A DNA stretch of 63,390 bases from a virus (IMGVR_UViG_3300019458_000008:1-63390), one strand, 5' to 3'; positions 27,848-38,877 are shown, numbered from the stretch's first letter. Translations and numbers: made by a program. Notes: generated by a model from the sequence alone, not told the origin.

Positions 27848-30800
27848 TTAGCCATGCGTGGCATACCAATTATATCCCCTCCCCATGGTCACTACAATAG
27901 GTACGCTATGTGGGTCCTCCATATCCCCTCCTCCGAATGGCTGGCCGAGTTCCATTGCTGCCGCCATAGATTCAGCATACCTCAAAACTTCGGGGTTGTC
28001 AAGGCCCCCCTCTCCGCCCTGCACGGACGTAAGTATTTCATCGTGGACTGTCAACAGTATCGTACCGCCCAGGATATCCTTGACCTTCAGTAGGGCGAAC
28101 CGCATCAGATCAGCCGTGGCCGTGCCCTGGACAATGTGACTGATGGTCTCGCGCTCAGCTGCCTCACGCTCCTGCTTATCACTGCTCATCAGGTTCGGTA
28201 TCCGTCTCGGGCGATGGAACAGGGTGTATGCGATATTACCGTTCTCTCTTGCCATGTGTACCGCATACGGTACCCACTCTTTGAAATATCTACCATAGAT
28301 ATCATGGATATTACCGATACCATGCCTGATCTCATTGAGGGTGGGAATCCCCAGGACTGCAAGGGCCGGATCCTCCAGCATTTGTTTCTCAATTACTGCA
28401 TGGATCTCGTCACCCTTACTACCGTACATAGCGCCAAAGAAAAAATTTTTCGCCCGTGTCTTATACGCATTGTATCTCACGGGGTCGTCATGCTTCTGGT
28501 CAGGCGTAACTTTGAACAGTCGTTCGACATTCAGTTCGTGAATATTAACCTTCGGGTCTCTGACCACTTGTAGCATAACCGGGTCCTGTGATACATAGGC
28601 GCCGACACGGACTTCGATCTGTCCATAGTCACCAGCGACTAGCACCTGTCCAGATTCTGCGATGAATACATTTCTCCATGGGACACGTACTTGTTGTAGG
28701 TTCGGGTCTTCCATAGAAAACCGATGACTCCGCACCCTCGTATTAGTAATCGTCGGATGAATCCGTCCGTCCTCCTCGGACTTGGCCAGCCACTCACGTA
28801 GGAACTGCGAGTGCTTCTCCAGCCGCTTCCATTCCAATACCAATGGTATCGCTGAATGCATCTCTCGCATCCTCAAGAGAGCCAATGCATCCACGGACGG
28901 CTGGTTAGTCTGCTGTGACAATCGCTGGACGGGGAATTGTAGATGTTCGTGTAACCACTCGACTAGCTGCTTCGGACTGTTCAACGATATCATCGTCCGC
29001 TCTGAAAACTTACCCTGCCCCCCACAGTCGGTACATCCTTCGCGTTTCCGCTTCCCATTCCTGCAAGTCTTGCACACCCAAACTCTGTCCGGCCTGTTGT
29101 ATCCACTCTCTCGCGCTAGGAAGTCCACGACTGATGCGAGATTGTTCTGCTTCTCTGTAACCTCTGCGAGCAGATCGACGGCCGTTTCGCGGTCGAAAAA
29201 AACTCCCGCCTCCTGCATATCAAGGAGAATAGTGACCATCGGAATATCCACGTTTGTATACAAGTCTGCCATCCGCTGATCAAACTTGGCTGTCAGTAGT
29301 TTCTCTAGTTCAACTGCCCAGTATGCATCTCCGCAATTATGTACTCCATAGCCTTCAACAATATATGTGCCACAGGACGTTTCGATTGAAACTACCCGGC
29401 GGCGACCGATGACGCGTAGTGACACAATTTCTACAGCCGCACTTCCCATGCGTTTGGCTGATGGAGACCAATTAGCTAGAAGACGAGTTGGACGGACTGA
29501 GCCAAGAAGACGCACAGTCTCCCGCCATCCGCCCCTAAGCTGCCATTTTACTAAGCCTTCTTGATTCCATATACTAGCATCGTATCCAGCACTCTCTGAA
29601 TAGGCTATAGCCCGTTCAGCTACCGCTCCAGGCTTCTGGCCCCATCCGATGCCGTTGTGTTGGTCACCCGCCTTTCTTAGGTAACCTTCTCCGTCGAGGT
29701 AGCCCGCAAACCAGCCCGCCTCACGACCATCGTCGAAGTCCCACGGATCAACAAACTTAGATAACCAGCGAGCACCCTGCCGCAGGGAACGCCAGGCATA
29801 TGGCTGGTTCCTTCCTGCCCCCGTTTTAGTAAGAAATGGATGATCTGAAGTTACGGTAAGACAGGTTCCGTCTGCAAGTTCGATACGAACGACTGGTCGT
29901 ATCTCATCATGTCGTGCGGTAACCACTGCATCGCACATCTTCTTTTGGGAATCCGTGAAACCAATCAGTATATCACCAATTTGAATATCGTCAAGCGGCG
30001 TCCAGCGTAGGTCACGGGTAAGAACCCTCATGTCTGGTGTAAAGCAACAATACTCGGCAACTAGCTCTGGGTCAATCGTAGATATCAACCTCCGATCACG
30101 GCCGCTACCAACGACCTCTTCGTAGGTAATATGTCGGTGTTCGAAATATTCTAATACTAACGGCTTGAGTCCCCTAACAGGGAGTCCCAGAAGATAGGCA
30201 GCCACGAGGCTATCTCCTGCCAGAGGGCCGACAGCGATCTTATGGCTTCGAAGTATAGCATAGTCGAACTTTGCAGAATGGCCAATCCAGGACAGTGCAG
30301 GAAGGCAGCGGTTGAGCGCAGCAACCCATTCTGCATCTCGATAATGGCCATAGAAACATCGGCGTCCGATGGCCACACCGATGCCGACGAGGCGATCTCG
30401 TTTTTCGTTTGCATCATCTCCAACGGGGTCAGTCTCCACATCGATTCCTGCGGGGCTTCCATCATGTTCACGGATTGCACGTTCGAACGCATCAATATCC
30501 TCCTTCGATTGTATCAATCTCCATTCGTATGGCTGTTCCCGCACACCATCCACTCTGGCCTCGGGTCGGCCAACGGGTAGGAGCGGCGCGACGAATTCGG
30601 AAACATCATAGTTGATAATCTCGTCGGCCTTATAGGCCGCATGTTGATAGGCGTTCCAGTATCGATGGCGATCAGTCTTAGGCGGAGTCTTAACTAGGTT
30701 ACGGGCCGTCGCTCGGTCAAGCCCATATTGTACTAACGCCCATTCAAGCCGGCTATCGAAGCGGCGAGGCAGAGGATCGTTAGCACCCGTTGCCTCGATA

Positions 30801-31009
30801 GTTACAAGTGCTACCGTTGGAGGCAGCAGTCGCCAGTAGTCTAGTGCTCGCTGACCACAGACTACCGTATCACCGGCCTGTGCGGCCTTCAATAGGGTAT
30901 AGCGGTCAGCGGGCTGGACTCCCTGACCCTGTAGACCAAGCATCTGTGCCCGTAGTACGGCCGCGTCTATTGTCGGCCCGATTGATTCGAGGTCAATATA
31001 GGCAGTCAA
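27848..31009 (-). CDS. polA: family A DNA polymerase with 3'-5' exonuclease domain, interrupted by an intein
   Basis: Exo I ..GIDVETD... Motif A ..VAGDYGQIEVRV... Motif B ..RAKNFFFGAMYG... Motif C ..LTVHDEIL.. Confidence 0.9.
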   Translation of the reverse strand: MTAYIDLESIGPTIDAAVLRAQMLGLQGQGVQPADRYTLLKAAQAGDTVVCGQRALDYWRLLPPTVALVTIEATGANDPLPRRFDSRLEWALVQYGLDRATARNLVKTPPKTDRHRYWNAYQHAAYKADEIINYDVSEFVAPLLPVGRPEARVDGVREQPYEWRLIQSKEDIDAFERAIREHDGSPAGIDVETDPVGDDANEKRDRLVGIGVAIGRRCFYGHYRDAEWVAALNRCLPALSWIGHSAKFDYAILRSHKIAVGPLAGDSLVAAYLLGLPVRGLKPLVLEYFEHRHITYEEVVGSGRDRRLISTIDPELVAEYCCFTPDMRVLTRDLRWTPLDDIQIGDILIGFTDSQKKMCDAVVTARHDEIRPVVRIELADGTCLTVTSDHPFLTKTGAGRNQPYAWRSLRQGARWLSKFVDPWDFDDGREAGWFAGYLDGEGYLRKAGDQHNGIGWGQKPGAVAERAIAYSESAGYDASIWNQEGLVKWQLRGGWRETVRLLGSVRPTRLLANWSPSAKRMGSAAVEIVSLRVIGRRRVVSIETSCGTYIVEGYGVHNCGDAYWAVELEKLLTAKFDQRMADLYTNVDIPMVTILLDMQEAGVFFDRETAVDLLAEVTEKQNNLASVVDFLARESGYNRPDRVWVCKTCRNGKRKREGCTDCGGQGKFSERTMISLNSPKQLVEWLHEHLQFPVQRLSQQTNQPSVDALALLRMREMHSAIPLVLEWKRLEKHSQFLREWLAKSEEDGRIHPTITNTRVRSHRFSMEDPNLQQVRVPWRNVFIAESGQVLVAGDYGQIEVRVGAYVSQDPVMLQVVRDPKVNIHELNVERLFKVTPDQKHDDPVRYNAYKTRAKNFFFGAMYGSKGDEIHAVIEKQMLEDPALAVLGIPTLNEIRHGIGNIHDIYGRYFKEWVPYAVHMARENGNIAYTLFHRPRRIPNLMSSDKQEREAAERETISHIVQGTATADLMRFALLKVKDILGGTILLTVHDEILTSVQGGEGGLDNPEVLRYAESMAAAMELGQPFGGGDMEDPHSVPIVVTMGRGYNWYATHG
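29336..30046 (-). mobile_element. class 1 intein (237 aa) in the polymerase exonuclease domain
   Basis: Begins CFTPDMRVLT (TGC at 30044-30046). Has block B ..LTVTSDHPFLT.., a single LAGLIDADG-like ..FAGYLDGEGY.., and ends ..YIVEGYGVHN, followed by a +1 Cys (29333-29335). Confidence 0.8.
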
Positions 31010-34490: not shown

Positions 34491-34606
34491 ATTATCGACT
34501 ACCCTTCTGGTCCAGGATTATCATCGACGTATATCATCGACGGGGCATCCCTGCCCCCCGACTTACCTCCCTGCATATCGCCAACCGGAGGACCGGACCG
34601 GGTTAT

Positions 34607-34843
34607 CTAGTTGGCGCCCTTCAGACCACCACTGGCCGTTGCTCGGGAGACGATCAGGATCGTGTCGCCGTCGCGCAGCTCGGCGTTGTCACCGACCTTG
34701 CGGCCGTTGACCGTCACGTCGTATGAGGAACCGTGCGGCGCGAACTTCTCGATGGCATCGCCGACCGAACTAATACCGTCATCGAGCGAGAACTGCTCGA
34801 AGCGCTCTCCCTGGACTACGGAAATCTGTCCATTACTTGCCAT
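34607..34843 (-). CDS. ThiS/MoaD-type ubiquitin-like beta-grasp protein with C-terminal ..SGG-LKGAN
   Basis: 78 aa. ..YDVTVNGRKVGDNAELRDGDTILIVSRATASGG is followed by a 5-residue tail. AAGGAGG lies upstream. Confidence 0.75.
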   Translation of the reverse strand: MASNGQISVVQGERFEQFSLDDGISSVGDAIEKFAPHGSSYDVTVNGRKVGDNAELRDGDTILIVSRATASGGLKGAN

Positions 34844-34956
34844 TTCCTTGTGCCTCCTTGTGAATGTACACGTGTAGATTCAACTATATCTGTTATCTAT
34901 GCATCCCTGCGCCACTCTCGATCCCTCATCAATATCCCATATAATCACCCTCTCTC

Positions 34957-35157
34957 CTAATTCAGGCTGATAAACCGCCCACCGATGGTAGACGTAAGTT
35001 GATCGTGTAACGCGACTTCGATCTTCTCGGACTCCTCGATCTCTCGCCTGATACTGTCCATCCGGCTGACTAAGTGTTCATACTCACTCCGTAGCCAGTG
35101 GGTGTAGCCGCGTTGCTTGGCCAACAGGTCTTCGAGTACGGTGTCAGGTAATGTCAT
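34957..35157 (-). CDS. 66-aa coiled-coil protein of the Ubl operon
   Basis: ORF track gives 34957-35214. The in-frame ATG at 35157 (MTLPDTVLEDLL..) overlaps the E1 stop by 14 nt. Confidence 0.5.
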   Translation of the reverse strand: MTLPDTVLEDLLAKQRGYTHWLRSEYEHLVSRMDSIRREIEESEKIEVALHDQLTSTIGGRFISLN

Positions 35158-35833
35158 GATCGCTGTCCTCCTCCCCATATTGCAGCCTATTGATTTCCAT
35201 ATTCGTTCCGACATGCCAGACCAGCATCTTCGGTAGCTTCATGCCCCGGCACCAGTTGTTAATCCAGCATGTAACCTGAGATGCAACCCACATTCCCATG
35301 AACGCTGTCCCCTCCGTACCACATGGGACATCGGGAACGTCCTCTTCACGAGGCAGTGCACCGAGATACTCAGGGATTTGTTCTGGCGTTGCTGAACAAA
35401 GCACGGCGTTCTCCCCCTGTGCTCGGGTATCAATGAACAGTGGAATATTATGTTTCATACTCCACTTAGCAATTGCAGCCCTTCCATCCAGTGTATCAAC
35501 ACATGAGATCACAGCTCCCACGTTCGTAGGAGCCGACTGGTGGGGGAATAGCTCCGCGTAACTCTTGAGAGATAGGCCAAACAGTGACTGTTCCAGACAC
35601 TGGCCTTTGCGGAGGCCGATGTTCTCCTCTATGTATGCCTGGACTCCGACGTTCACATCCTCGACCATATCATCTCCATCGAAGATATGGACTTGCCTGA
35701 CAGCCCGTGATAGCGCATGGGCTGACCACGATCCAAGCATACCCGCACCCGCGATAATGACCTCCATTGCTGCCATGCGTGGGTGGACAATCTGGTGCTG
35801 CCGCTCATGTAGAATCCCTTGTAGCAATGGCAT
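35144..35833 (-). CDS. minimal E1-like ThiF/MoeB-family adenylyltransferase
   Basis: ..VIIAGAGMLGS.. Rossmann loop, ..IFDGDDMVEDVNVGVQ.., ..VISCVDTLDGRAAIA.., ..PCGTEGTAFMGMWVAS.. Confidence 0.75.
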   Translation of the reverse strand: MPLLQGILHERQHQIVHPRMAAMEVIIAGAGMLGSWSAHALSRAVRQVHIFDGDDMVEDVNVGVQAYIEENIGLRKGQCLEQSLFGLSLKSYAELFPHQSAPTNVGAVISCVDTLDGRAAIAKWSMKHNIPLFIDTRAQGENAVLCSATPEQIPEYLGALPREEDVPDVPCGTEGTAFMGMWVASQVTCWINNWCRGMKLPKMLVWHVGTNMEINRLQYGEEDSDHDIT

Positions 35834-35835
35834 CT

Positions 35836-36990
35836 TTACTTCCCCTTCCGTGCTGCCCGCTGCTTACGCCGACCGCCGGCATTCTGCATGTTATCATTAT
35901 CCTTCCACCGGATAACCTTCTCGTCCTTGTTCAAGTACGCATGCGAGGGATCCTTATGGCTCCCGCTCAGTACGCACTGGTTCCCCTTAAATGAGGCTTT
36001 GCAACGCCCGGCCTGCATCGTATCCTGTTGGTATTGCTGCTGCCCTTTACCCGGCTCGAACGTTTCGTACTCATCCTTGTCCTGCGAGGACCACCATAGA
36101 TGCTGTGGGCTACTGTGTCCCTGTGGTAACATACAGCCTCGAAATCCTCCTGTACTGTTGACCCACCCGACCTGACATAACGACTTCCGATCACGGGCTG
36201 TGATCCGGCCGTTGCCCCGCTTGAACATCTGGATCAAGTCATCCATATCCTCATCCGTAAGGACAACTCCAGCCATGTCAGCATATGCAGCAGCCGCAGC
36301 TTTCGCATCCTCGTCATCCATATCATCGATAGTCTCGTCATCCAGTGACGTATCGTTGATATTATCCACCTGTCGTTTGATACATTGCTGACAGCAGCAA
36401 GCGTCAGCGTGTTTCGAGAACTGTAATGGATAGGTCTTCCGCCGCACATCTTTCAGTTGTTCATCAATCTCCCTATCCAAGTAGGCGAGGTCTGGTGGCT
36501 CAACTGACGGTATGACAGTAGCCCTTAAGTGCAGTGGCTCACGGACAATGAGCCAGCTAGTCATTTCCATCTTCGTATTGACAACCAGCCCAATCATCCA
36601 TGACAACTGCTCCTCACGGAGCAAGTCCCACAACTGTTCCGTATCAGTATTCGATGGTGATGTGCCCATTGAGGCATGGGAGTGCCAGATCCCCCGCCAG
36701 ATACTCCACAATGAGGTCTGCTCCTGCTGTGCAGTCTCGTTTGCTAGCTCGACAAGGTACTTGTGGAAGTCCTTAGCCCCCACATCGAAGTGGGCGCTTT
36801 GTACTTCTTGTGGTGGAATCCGAATATCCGTTGCACGGAAGTACGTATCTGTATTGTCAGCATTATCGGCCGGCTGAACTCGCTCGATGCGGAGTAGGCC
36901 GCCGACCTCTAGTGTTTTATCATGTAGAACTGCCCGCCGGATTTTATATGCCGTCTCTTGCGTAATGTGTAGTTCGATATCCGATCCCAT
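35836..36990 (-). CDS. JAB/MPN (JAMM) metalloprotease with about 230-aa C-terminal extension
   Basis: E28 (..LEVGG..) and H103-S-H105-x7-S113-x2-D116 (WHSHASMGTSPSNTD). Confidence 0.8.
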   Translation of the reverse strand: MGSDIELHITQETAYKIRRAVLHDKTLEVGGLLRIERVQPADNADNTDTYFRATDIRIPPQEVQSAHFDVGAKDFHKYLVELANETAQQEQTSLWSIWRGIWHSHASMGTSPSNTDTEQLWDLLREEQLSWMIGLVVNTKMEMTSWLIVREPLHLRATVIPSVEPPDLAYLDREIDEQLKDVRRKTYPLQFSKHADACCCQQCIKRQVDNINDTSLDDETIDDMDDEDAKAAAAAYADMAGVVLTDEDMDDLIQMFKRGNGRITARDRKSLCQVGWVNSTGGFRGCMLPQGHSSPQHLWWSSQDKDEYETFEPGKGQQQYQQDTMQAGRCKASFKGNQCVLSGSHKDPSHAYLNKDEKVIRWKDNDNMQNAGGRRKQRAARKGK

Positions 36991-36996
36991 GATATT

Positions 36997-38877
36997 TTAC
37001 TCCTCCACGTCCTGGTCCTCGTAGTTGTAGTCATCATCGTCCGCTAGAACTTGTGATACTTCGGCCGCCGGTGTCGAATCCGGTATACGCCGATAGTCAA
37101 TATCCGGATGTTCATCCAGCCACGTATGTAAACGTTCAGTTGACTCCGTATCCGGCGGTAACTCTAGGTCGTATTCCCTACTAGGAAAGCATAAGGTTAA
37201 TAAGCACGACCGGCATATGGCCGCACTCTGCCAAGGGGTACTTCTATCTATGTAAATATTAGGAATAAAGCGGTACAGAATATTAAACTGTCTGTTACAC
37301 TCGTTGCATCCTATATCGTATAAATTAGGGACAACGAAGATACTAAAGGTCTCGTGGGGGGGCGATAGGGAAGTTGCCTGTAGTAGCAGTTCAGTCGGGT
37401 AGCTCTCAATACTATATGGCACACACCGACATCTTTTAGAGGCTAAGTTACAACCAGCACATGTAGGCGTATGAGTTTCACTGATACAGAATGTGCATCT
37501 ATGCCTCACCTCCGATAGCGACTGCCGTGCTTGGTATACCGAATTCTGGCCAAAGCAGCCAACACAAGGGCCATTTGCCGGAACGGGTGCTTCGGGAAGC
37601 CCTTCTTCTAGAAATATCCTATCCCACCAAGCGGGAGTTGGTGGATAAGGGATTTGATAGCGGTGCTGAGATCTTAGATGCGTAGAGGGGCTGCTGTTAG
37701 TTGATTGTGCGTCTTGTTCCATAGTAATTACACGTTCAGATACAAGGGCAGTGACTGGGACATGCCGGACACGTCGAGTTCGGTTTGATGTGACTACGGT
37801 TACACGCTGGTCTGCTATCCAACGTTCCCACGTAGGTGTCATATACCGTGGTGTCTTGAATAGTGATGCCCAACCTGTGGTCTGGAACTGACCACTTAGC
37901 TGACTGTTCCGATCCCAGCCGTACCGCCAACGTTCCATTATACTGACAACACCGCGTAGATCACCTGCTTGGAACAGATTGTCTATAAGCCGTTCAACTG
38001 ATTCGCCGCTAATGCTTCGTCCGAAGCAAATAGTATCCGAAGCATGTGGATGAAGTAGGCTCCCATCATCGTTGGTTGGATAGGGAGTGACTGTCGCGTC
38101 GTGTGGCTGAAACAGAAACTCTGTAATCGAGGTCATGTACGCACCACGCTCATAAACCAGCAATACTGGACGGAAGGCTACGTATAGAGAATTGGGTGGA
38201 ATATGCAGCTGGAACCTACCGTTGTTCGCGTGATTGTATTCACCAAGGGACGGGGGACAGTTACTTACTTCACCTTCATCATGTCCCCGCGTAGCCCAAT
38301 GGAGCACTTCTTCATTGTCAGCGAAGAACTCGGTTAATGCAGCCCGATCAAGATAGCGTTCAGTATTACCTAATGCGGACATTTGATTAATATTATGCAA
38401 AAGCAAATCCCGTTCCCGCTGACACTGCTCTTGATTTGCATCTCTCTGGGCTATGTATGCTCGATAGGTGTCCACTCGGTCTGCCAGCCTGCCTTGGGCA
38501 GATTGGGGCAGTATACTTAAAACTAATGCGGTGTGCTCGGGCGGCCCACTGCCATCACTATCATATACAGGAGCCTCCTCGCCTCGGTGTACGACAAAAG
38601 TTGTCGGGCTTAGCATGCTTACAACTAGGCTAGTGTCAGCATCAAGGATTGGTCGAAGAGTGCGAGTGATTCGCCGTGCAATTGCCCGCGCTGTCCGCAA
38701 ACGTCCAGTATTTGTGCGTATAGCCTCCTTAATGTCGATGATCTCATTTGTTTCGAGATTTACTATGTTTATGTAGGGCCCCATGAACCCGGGCGCAATC
38801 CTGTCGCTAACTGCGCGCAAATCCCGAGTCGCACGCATGGGGGTAAATCGTTGAGTTTCCGATTGAACTCTTGGCAT
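36997..38877 (-). CDS. large E2 (UBC)-like protein with Cys-rich zinc-finger-like C-terminal region
   Basis: ..TPYPTNDDGSLLHPHASDTICFG.. (HPH 276-278, Cys284 codon at 38026-38028). Residues about 455-560 carry CxxC/CxC pairs (CVGC, CTFC, CAGC, CRC, CNEC, CRSC). Confidence 0.6.
   Translation of the reverse strand: MPRVQSETQRFTPMRATRDLRAVSDRIAPGFMGPYINIVNLETNEIIDIKEAIRTNTGRLRTARAIARRITRTLRPILDADTSLVVSMLSPTTFVVHRGEEAPVYDSDGSGPPEHTALVLSILPQSAQGRLADRVDTYRAYIAQRDANQEQCQRERDLLLHNINQMSALGNTERYLDRAALTEFFADNEEVLHWATRGHDEGEVSNCPPSLGEYNHANNGRFQLHIPPNSLYVAFRPVLLVYERGAYMTSITEFLFQPHDATVTPYPTNDDGSLLHPHASDTICFGRSISGESVERLIDNLFQAGDLRGVVSIMERWRYGWDRNSQLSGQFQTTGWASLFKTPRYMTPTWERWIADQRVTVVTSNRTRRVRHVPVTALVSERVITMEQDAQSTNSSPSTHLRSQHRYQIPYPPTPAWWDRIFLEEGLPEAPVPANGPCVGCFGQNSVYQARQSLSEVRHRCTFCISETHTPTCAGCNLASKRCRCVPYSIESYPTELLLQATSLSPPHETFSIFVVPNLYDIGCNECNRQFNILYRFIPNIYIDRSTPWQSAAICRSCLLTLCFPSREYDLELPPDTESTERLHTWLDEHPDIDYRRIPDSTPAAEVSQVLADDDDYNYEDQDVEE

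Follow-up and report, generated by a model that had tools for sequence, protein, structure and literature searches.

The groundwater phage record IMGVR_UViG_3300019458_000008 (hereafter the window, a complete virus record of 63,390 bp with direct terminal repeats) encodes a ubiquitin-like protein (Ubl) that is probably made as a precursor and needs C-terminal trimming before it can be activated by an E1 enzyme. The protein ends in a tail in which two glycines, Gly73 and Gly76, are conserved together with the residues between them, and a JAB/JAMM metallopeptidase is encoded in the same gene module. As the site of the cut, Gly73 is slightly favoured over Gly76. The conserved dual-glycine tail is new, whereas the principle of JAB pre-processing of masked Ubls is already known. 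The gene and the codons of its tail are as follows.

34607-34843, minus strand: Ubl precursor gene, an open reading frame (ORF) of 78 residues, beta-grasp, ThiS/MoaD-like
34610-34636, minus strand: codons of the C-terminal tail A70-N78 (ASGG-LKGA-N)
34628-34630, minus strand: Gly72 codon
34625-34627, minus strand: codon of the invariant Gly73
34610-34624, minus strand: codons of the residues past Gly73 (L74, K75, G76, A77 and N78)
34616-34618, minus strand: codon of Gly76, the second conserved glycine
34613-34615, minus strand: Ala77 codon
34610-34612, minus strand: codon of the variable residue Asn78
34607-34609, minus strand: TAG stop codon of the Ubl gene

Conserved tail and fold of the Ubl

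Translation of the ORF gives a protein with the C-terminus ..RATASGGLKGAN (written out, ..RATASGG-LKGAN), which bears out the sequence-only reading of a Ubl that ends in ASGG-LKGAN, five residues past Gly73. A GG followed by five residues is meaningless in one sequence; the motif is considered real because it is conserved in 51 homologues. These 51 distinct single-domain members of the family form the basis of the tail counts given here. A word-indexed search returned five homologues with 57-63% identity, an exhaustive profile search returned 49 representatives, and a second profile search added more. All 51 relatives are metagenomic or viral, and several reside on contigs of 46-61 kb, like the window phage in size.

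The sole invariant residue of the tail is Gly73 (51/51), and Gly72 is retained in 44 of the 51 sequences (Ala in 4, Glu in 3). Homologues without a conserved GG had been named beforehand as the observation that would speak against a masked di-glycine, and this pattern did not occur. Position 70 is Ala in 46/51, and position 71 is Ser in 29/51 and Arg in 11/51. Past Gly73, position 74 is hydrophobic in 51/51, position 75 is Lys in 46/51, position 76 is Gly in 44/51 (Gln in 5, Met in 1 and Ala in 1), and position 77 is Ala in 42/51 and Gly in 5/51. The protein ends exactly at position 77 in 23 of the 51 relatives, and the rest add 1-20 unrelated residues. GG is thus followed by 4-24 residues in every member, and a free Gly-Gly end is absent from the family: none of the 51 ends at Gly73, at Gly76 or at any other glycine, each having at least one further residue. 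Because no relative ends at glycine, some C-terminal trimming looks obligatory. Synonymous changes between phages are observed at every codon from 70 to 77, including a switch of Ser71 between AGY and TCN, which indicates that the octapeptide ASGGLKGA is held by selection on the protein and that only Asn78 is free. The proposal of a masked di-glycine therefore stands in that the glycine is capped in all relatives, and fails in treating the five residues as a disposable extension, as positions 74-77 are conserved and selected.

The nearest outgroups of the family (P0011, P0013, P0018, P0024 and P0037) are polyubiquitin-like, with 2-3 near-identical beta-grasp units arranged head to tail. Their units end in hydrophobic-K-G-N or hydrophobic-K-G-G, and the last unit stops there or 2-4 residues later.

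The Pfam ThiS profile (PF02597) scores the window Ubl at 20.8 bits, below the cut-off of 22.5, and the homologue from locus L005 at 24.6 bits, above it; the relatives P0005 and P0032 carry a precomputed PF02597 match. An AlphaFold2 model of the Ubl, built from a six-sequence alignment, has a predicted local distance difference test score (pLDDT) of 76.7 and a beta-beta-alpha-beta-beta topology (E-E-H-E-E), in which the last strand comprises residues 61-66 and the tail is disordered, with a pLDDT below 50 from residue 72. Foldseek matches the model to Mth1743, MoaD and SAMP1 with a probability of 1.00 and E-values of 4e-3 to 1e-2, and VIA-align gives Z scores of 7.8-7.0 against Mth1743, MoaD and TtuB. 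These scores are middling, but the match list is uniform: every leading Foldseek or VIA match is a beta-grasp Ubl (MoaD, ThiS, Mth1743, TtuB, SAMP1/2, SUMO and ubiquitin), including those of Caldiarchaeum subterraneum (PDB 6FNO, 6FNN and 6FJ7). On this basis the assignment of the window protein as a beta-grasp Ubl, as supported by the model, is accepted.

Candidate cleavage sites in the tail

We tentatively place the cut of the JAB enzyme after Gly73, which would release LKGAN. In structural alignments, residue 72 of the Ubl pairs with the last mature residue of MoaD (81), SUMO1 (97), SUMO2 (93) and Smt3 (98), which puts Gly72/Gly73 at the canonical tail length. Counted from the GD turn, Gly73 is at +13 and Gly76 at +16, compared with +11 in Pyrococcus furiosus MoaD and approximately +14 in BilA if its Asn is the turn residue; the tail length leans to Gly73 and is not decisive. 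Additionally, Gly76 is replaced by Gln in four divergent clusters at 50% identity, three of which (P0009, P0014 and P0015) share GGYKQA, and P0009 and P0015 (GGYKQA..) have no glycine past Gly73. The A70-[S/K]-G-G element is also similar to the ..KGG with which units of the nearest outgroups terminate. The relative P0032, which ends in AKGGFE and has no later glycine, was considered as an anchor for Gly73 and set aside; it carries little weight because it is a singleton on a 1-kb contig.

Several points weigh against this placement. Positions 74-77 (hydrophobic, Lys, Gly and Ala, at the frequencies given above) are conserved under purifying selection, which is unusual for a discarded propeptide. 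Variation and length differences start past Ala77, where 23/51 sequences end, as fits a cut after Gly76, and the nearest outgroup units end in hydrophobic-K-G-N, similar to L-K-G-A/N. The pathway downstream of the cut also leans on a 626-residue protein, described below, which is an E2-like candidate at the level of a sequence motif and whose fold is unproven.

The Bil systems of bacteria provide a rule for locating such sites. Type II Bil Ubls have a 'universally conserved glycine' and, past it, as many as nine residues that are not conserved, and Chambers et al. used this conserved-glycine criterion to predict the BilA site, which was then confirmed (bioRxiv 10.1101/2023.09.26.559546). When applied to the present family, the rule gives two answers, Gly73 and Gly76. 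The Ensifer aridi BilA tail is ..KAG-VAG-A, and the JAB enzyme BilC cuts it at Gly97|Ala98 (bioRxiv 10.1101/2023.09.26.559546). Because positions 74-77 are conserved and only position 78 onward varies, the cut in the phage protein could equally follow Gly76, as in BilA. Such a cut (..GGLKG|AN), which we regard as a possible though somewhat less probable site, would leave Leu-Lys-Gly as the mature end and Ala-Asn as the cap, with ASGG as a flexible linker in a longer tail. It would explain why conservation extends through Ala77 and why the non-conserved, length-variable part begins directly past this residue. The commonest architecture, in which Gly76 is followed by exactly one residue (22 of 44), matches that of E. 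aridi BilA, and of the seven sequences that lack Gly76, three have a glycine at the next position (KQG, KMG and KAG). The nearest outgroup poly-Ubl units, with their hydrophobic-K-G-N ends, indicate that a Lys before the reactive glycine is tolerated in the lineage. However, Gly76 is present in only 44/51 relatives, with P0009 and P0015 lacking any glycine past Gly73; it exceeds the canonical tail length by three to five residues; and a cut there leaves the invariant Gly73 and the near-invariant Ala70 without an obvious role.

The abrupt end of conservation could also be read as the mature end itself. In that case Ala77 would be the terminal residue, Gly-Ala would replace Gly-Gly, the JAB enzyme would here remove Asn78 only and mainly deconjugate, and about half of the family would need no trimming. 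In agreement with this, conservation stops at Ala77, which is the last residue in 23/51 relatives, Ala or Gly occupies position 77 in 47/51, each exception at position 76 (Q, M or A) has Ala or Gly next, and the outgroup poly-Ubl units and last copies end in KGG or KGN. Nevertheless, Ala77 is an improbable terminus. In the sole Gly-Ala end that has been tested biochemically, the Ala is removed, and an Ala in this position sterically blocks ATP binding, as uncut BilA does in its E1 (bioRxiv 10.1101/2023.09.26.559546). No report of an E1 that activates a terminal Ala for conjugation was found, and a paper on CBASS consulted for a documented C-terminal Ala in CBASS substrates contained none.

A tail that is never cut is less probable still. 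The Ubl would then be a non-covalent adaptor or regulator of the E1 or the JAB enzyme, with ASGGLKGA as a binding peptide, which would be consistent with purifying selection on the whole octapeptide and with the many beta-grasp proteins that are not conjugated (Iyer et al. 2006, PMC1779556). Against this, genes for an E1 and a JAB enzyme, with adenylation residues and active site intact, always accompany the Ubl gene, and a disordered C-terminal tail bearing an invariant glycine is the hallmark of activated Ubls.

With the cut after Gly73, the hydrophobic-Lys-Gly-Ala segment would not be a random cap and may serve as a prime-side recognition element or a plug for the peptidase or the E1. A stronger version, which we hold to be unlikely, makes the segment a working part of the protein, either because Gly73 and Gly76 are two maturation sites or because the segment is a Lys-bearing pseudo-substrate plug. 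Alternative or sequential cuts at two sites would give two differently reactive forms of the Ubl; in the plug version, the Lys would mimic an acceptor site and keep the Ubl inert on the E1 or the JAB enzyme before cleavage. In either case, this would be the first description of a conserved pro-peptide or dual-glycine switch for a Ubl of prokaryotes or viruses, within a conjugation system owned by a phage. Any biochemistry on this system, including conjugation assays, probes and the identification of targets by remnant mass, first requires knowledge of the true mature end, which would also show whether conserved residues past a reactive glycine can function.

Gene module, proposed pathway and known systems

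The Ubl gene is the last of five ORFs on the same strand, in the order 626-residue protein, JAB, E1, small ORF and Ubl, and the first three are spaced by 6 and 2 nt. They lie in the minus-strand arm of the genome, which also carries a family-A DNA polymerase, a helicase, an exonuclease and a uracil-DNA glycosylase.

36997-38877, minus strand: 626-residue protein, E2-like candidate, with a core at approximately residues 224-340 and a multi-CxxC C-terminal part
35836-36990, minus strand: JAB/JAMM metallopeptidase, 384 residues (Pfam Prok-JAB 7e-7, 29.6 bits, above the cut-off)
35144-35833, minus strand: minimal ThiF-type E1 adenylation enzyme, 229 residues (Pfam ThiF 1.3e-10)
34957-35214, minus strand: small ORF between E1 and Ubl, 85 residues as listed, more likely 66 residues from Met20 at 35157

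The residues required for catalysis are intact in both enzymes. In the E1, the GxGxxG loop (G29/G31/G34), D52, K76 and the Mg-binding D113 are invariant in five phages, as is a single cysteine, C171, which lies approximately 58 residues past the Mg-binding Asp, at the position where ThiF and MoeB carry their catalytic Cys. The enzyme is a single adenylation domain without a rhodanese domain, and its nearest solved relatives are TcdA, ThiF, UBA5 and Uba4, not BilD. The JAB active site (E28, H103-x-H105, S113 and D116) is likewise invariant in five phages. Its catalytic domain spans approximately residues 1-155 and is followed by a Cys/His-rich C-terminal extension. PADLOC JAB models match the protein down to 1.3e-10, and PADLOC returned only weak matches, to generic E1-E2 and JAB models. 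Residues ~190-384 (window 35836-36429) form a long extension with an acidic stretch and Cys/His-rich segments; a related Cys/His-rich segment follows the JAB domain in loci L005 and L002, and this segment may bind metal or a target.

The loci retrieved for comparison comprise Hainich groundwater contigs (L002-L009) and three IMG/VR viral contigs (L010-L012). The module is syntenic in four further phage or viral contigs, and the order in every locus that is long enough is HPH..Cys protein, JAB, E1, a gap of 78-264 nt, and Ubl. A JAB gene with the E..HxH..S..D site adjoins a ThiF E1 in all five phage loci with readable context. The JAMM gene had been placed two genes upstream of the Ubl gene, which holds for the relatives; in the window phage it is three ORFs upstream because the E1 gene and the small ORF intervene. 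The module is placed among replication genes: a uracil-DNA glycosylase gene is directly downstream of the Ubl gene in L005, and a uracil-DNA glycosylase-like ORF lies approximately 1.3 kb downstream of it in the window. Scans of viral contigs with the E1, the E1 alignment, the Ubl alignment, P0020, P0015 and P0009 gave no match, nor did a scan of genome contigs with the E1 alignment. Among cultured phages, neither the module (megablast) nor the Ubl (tblastn) gave a match.

A similar arrangement is present in the cultured Flavobacterium psychrophilum phages of the FpV4 group (L013, NC_041872.1 59974-68495), where a large protein with an HSH..FCIG motif, a JAB with HxH-x7-S-xx-D and a 228-residue ThiF follow the same gene order near a uracil-DNA glycosylase. 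This group has no recognisable small Ubl gene, and its E1 is annotated as 'thiamine biosynthesis protein'. The E1 also matched jumbo Xanthomonas and Erwinia phages.

The 626-residue protein shares approximately 26% identity (E ~1e-11) with the first module gene of L005 and L002, and its core motif, F.PV .. HPH-x4/5-IC.G .. RWR.G, is invariant in five phages. Relatives occupy the same slot at L005:5540-6466, L002:4214-5107, L010:4781-5521 and L012:4511-5551; these four are 246-346 residues long and retain the invariant core, and three of them share a CxxC-rich C-terminal region. The HPH..IC.G motif resembles the HPN..Cys signature of E2 enzymes, and the ESM Atlas leads from this protein to viral clusters with Prok-E2_D on 11% of members. 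AlphaFold2 gave no confident fold from a five-sequence alignment (pLDDT 46), a PDB profile search with the protein returned a chance match only, and there was no Pfam match at E up to 10; PF14460 searched against the genome also found nothing.

The small ORF most likely starts at Met20, as judged from GGAGGAGG, which precedes the ATG at 35157, and from this start it overlaps the E1 stop by 14 nt. Its product is helix-rich, is not conserved in relatives, and matches nothing in Pfam, PHROG or PADLOC. What lies between E1 and Ubl varies: relatives have unrelated small ORFs or none, with an unrelated ORF of 57 residues in L002 and a hydrophobic one of 29 residues in L010.

For the favoured cut after Gly73, the pathway that we infer runs as follows. 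The precursor would not be adenylated because its reactive glycine is internal and not C-terminal. The JAB/JAMM enzyme of the same module would remove the C-terminal residues, with the position after the invariant Gly73 as the first choice, and the homodimer-type ThiF E1 would adenylate the exposed glycine. The E1 would probably then form a thioester on its sole invariant cysteine, Cys171, and the Ubl would be handed to the conserved cysteine of the HPH..IC.G protein, the putative E2, and from there to a target.

Protein conjugation is favoured over sulfur transfer because the phage genome has no sulfur-pathway genes and the HPH..Cys protein always heads the module, the E2 assignment itself being unproven. 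The question of sulfur is independent of the cut site. It is quite doubtful, on the present evidence, that the Ubl carries sulfur in the manner of ThiS, MoaD, CysO or QbsE, loaded by host enzymes as a thiocarboxylate after trimming and E1 adenylation; the cysteine of the 626-residue protein would then serve sulfur transfer, which could yield a thiolated tRNA or nucleotide. By sequence and by fold, the Ubl matches best to carriers of the MoaD, ThiS, TtuB and SAMP type, TcdA and ThiF are among the nearest solved relatives of the E1, sulfur operons can combine a JAB with ThiS and an E1 (Iyer et al. 2006, PMC1779556), and the E2 fold of the partner is unproven, all of which would suit such a carrier. 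By contrast, the complete phage genome encodes no rhodanese, PP-loop ATPase, cysteine desulfurase or pyridoxal phosphate (PLP)-dependent sulfhydrylase, the E1 lacks a rhodanese domain, the HPH-x5-Cys protein is always the first gene, and the module sits among replication genes. A self-contained sulfur pathway was rejected, as no rhodanese, PP-loop, cysteine desulfurase or PALP gene is present in the complete phage genome.

Bacterial ubiquitin-like conjugation has been studied as anti-phage defence (Bil, Bub and type II CBASS), and the trimming of a capped glycine by JAB is an established activation step in defence systems; the same logic appears here in environmental phages of approximately 60 kb. 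The closest likeness is to the Bil system of E. aridi, in which a single beta-grasp Ubl has a capped glycine that is exposed by a JAB enzyme of the same operon, the tail is of the form G-hydrophobic-x-G-A (..AG-VAG-A in BilA, ..GG-LKG-A in the phage), and the gene set includes an E1 and a Cys-bearing E2-type partner, which in the phage is a candidate. The differences are substantial. The phage E1 is a 229-residue single adenylation domain; the residues past the conserved glycine are not conserved in Bil, whereas four are conserved in the phage family; the gene order is Ubl-E2-DUB-E1 in Bil and E2-like-JAB-E1-Ubl in the phage; and Bil is a bacterial anti-phage system, whereas the present module is carried by a group of phages as a syntenic block. 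A PDB search detected no sequence similarity of the phage proteins to BilA or BilC. The phage module is not a member of Bil, given its single 229-residue E1 domain, the lack of similarity to the solved Bil proteins and its location in phages. In Type I, BilA mostly ends at glycine, and overhangs of 2-9 residues occur in 12 homologues.

In the Type I Bub system, the JAB domain of BubCD cuts the BubAB pre-protein after Gly229 (PMC11601596). As is proposed here, JAB cleavage directly past a conserved glycine makes the active Bub Ubl, and the minimal homodimeric E1 resembles UBA5. In Bub, however, Ubl and E2 form one fusion protein and JAB and E1 another, and neither fusion occurs in the phage; the Bub E1 has no catalytic Cys, its E2 uses Ser and the system includes a DUF6527 serine protease, none of which applies to the phage module.

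Among cellular systems, the Caldiarchaeum operon also combines a Ubl precursor bearing a C-terminal extension with an E1, an E2 and a JAMM enzyme. The extension of its pro-ubiquitin is reportedly removed by an Rpn11-type JAMM, exposing the di-glycine (Hennell James et al. 2017). It differs in being an archaeal cellular system with a ubiquitin-like LRGG tail, a RING E3 and an extension that is not conserved. JAMM partners are also found with sulfur-carrier Ubls, namely QbsD with QbsE (..GG-CF) and Mec+ with CysO. These have the ThiS/MoaD-like fold of the phage Ubl and a masked GG that is removed by JAMM before ThiF-type adenylation, as is proposed for the phage protein. Their operons hold sulfur-transfer and biosynthetic genes, which the phage lacks, and lack the HPH..Cys protein. 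The class as such is described by Iyer et al. 2006 (PMC1779556).

The phages lambda and T1 carry the tail-assembly pair TAPI (with a Ubl domain) and TAPK (JAB plus NlpC/P60) (Iyer et al. 2006, PMC1779556). TAPI is a phage beta-grasp domain with a conserved C-terminal glycine, past which the adjoining JAB is predicted to cut. That pair has no E1, belongs to a tail module and has its Ubl fused to another domain, whereas the present module includes an E1 and is surrounded by replication genes. Iyer et al. 2006 (PMC1779556) predicted that JAB enzymes unmask Ubl glycines, and the principle is not new, as it is established for Bil, Bub and Caldiarchaeum ubiquitin. The phage block is distinguished by its position next to replication genes, by an E1 of much smaller size and by the two conserved glycines of the tail. 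The literature yielded E1-like genes of Asgard viruses and the lambda TAPI/TAPK pair, and no phage-encoded set of Ubl, E1, JAB and E2-like protein was found in it, which is weak evidence. If phages run tagging systems of their own, the targets could be host defences or their own replication or assembly proteins.

Spacer upstream of the Ubl gene and further observations

The Ubl gene is set apart from the preceding ORF by the following elements, two of which flank the gene.

34844-34956, minus strand: spacer of 113 nt before the Ubl gene
34853-34859, minus strand: Shine-Dalgarno sequence AAGGAGG, 9 nt before the Ubl ATG
34901-34910, minus strand: 10-nt element GCAGGGATGC, upstream copy, 58 nt upstream of the Ubl ATG
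34545-34554, minus strand: 10-nt element GCAGGGATGC, downstream copy, 53 nt past the Ubl stop

The 113-nt spacer with a strong Shine-Dalgarno sequence, as described in the sequence-only reading, is present, and both features recur in relatives: an AGGAGG-type box precedes the Ubl start in 7/7 related loci that were aligned, and the E1-Ubl gap in relatives is 78-264 nt. The strong Shine-Dalgarno sequence suggests high translation of the Ubl, a stoichiometric substrate, which this conserved ribosome-binding site would supply in excess over the enzymes. Expression at a different level or time had been proposed; higher translation is suggested by these observations, and separate timing is not supported. 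The spacer contains no sigma-70-like promoter on the gene strand, no terminator and no copy of the phage's own promoter-like element TTGACA-N7-TATAAT, and its RNA folds no better than shuffled sequences (z = +1.37). An independent promoter or terminator for the Ubl gene was rejected because no such site was found in the spacer. A partial look-alike of the phage promoter-like element, AGGGTGATTATAT, is at chance level and was discarded.

The element GCAGGGATGC occurs in exactly two copies in the genome, both on the gene strand, where 0.21 are expected; two copies were obtained in 1 of 100 shuffles. Both copies are able to fold into a GCA-GGGA-TGC mini-hairpin that has a GNRA-type loop, and in the downstream copy this extends to a GGGGCA-GGGA-TGCCCC hairpin. 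The pair may mark the border of a cassette or act as a site for processing or binding.

Additionally, a perfect 16-nt palindrome, GGTCGTGATCACGACC, is common to L010:6924-7003 and L012:6915-6994, approximately 35-40 nt upstream of the Ubl start, and is absent from the window. In the same arm of the window, the family-A DNA polymerase ORF (1053 residues, 27848-31009, minus strand) contains an apparent intein-like insert that runs from ..CFTPDMRVL.. to ..VHNC.

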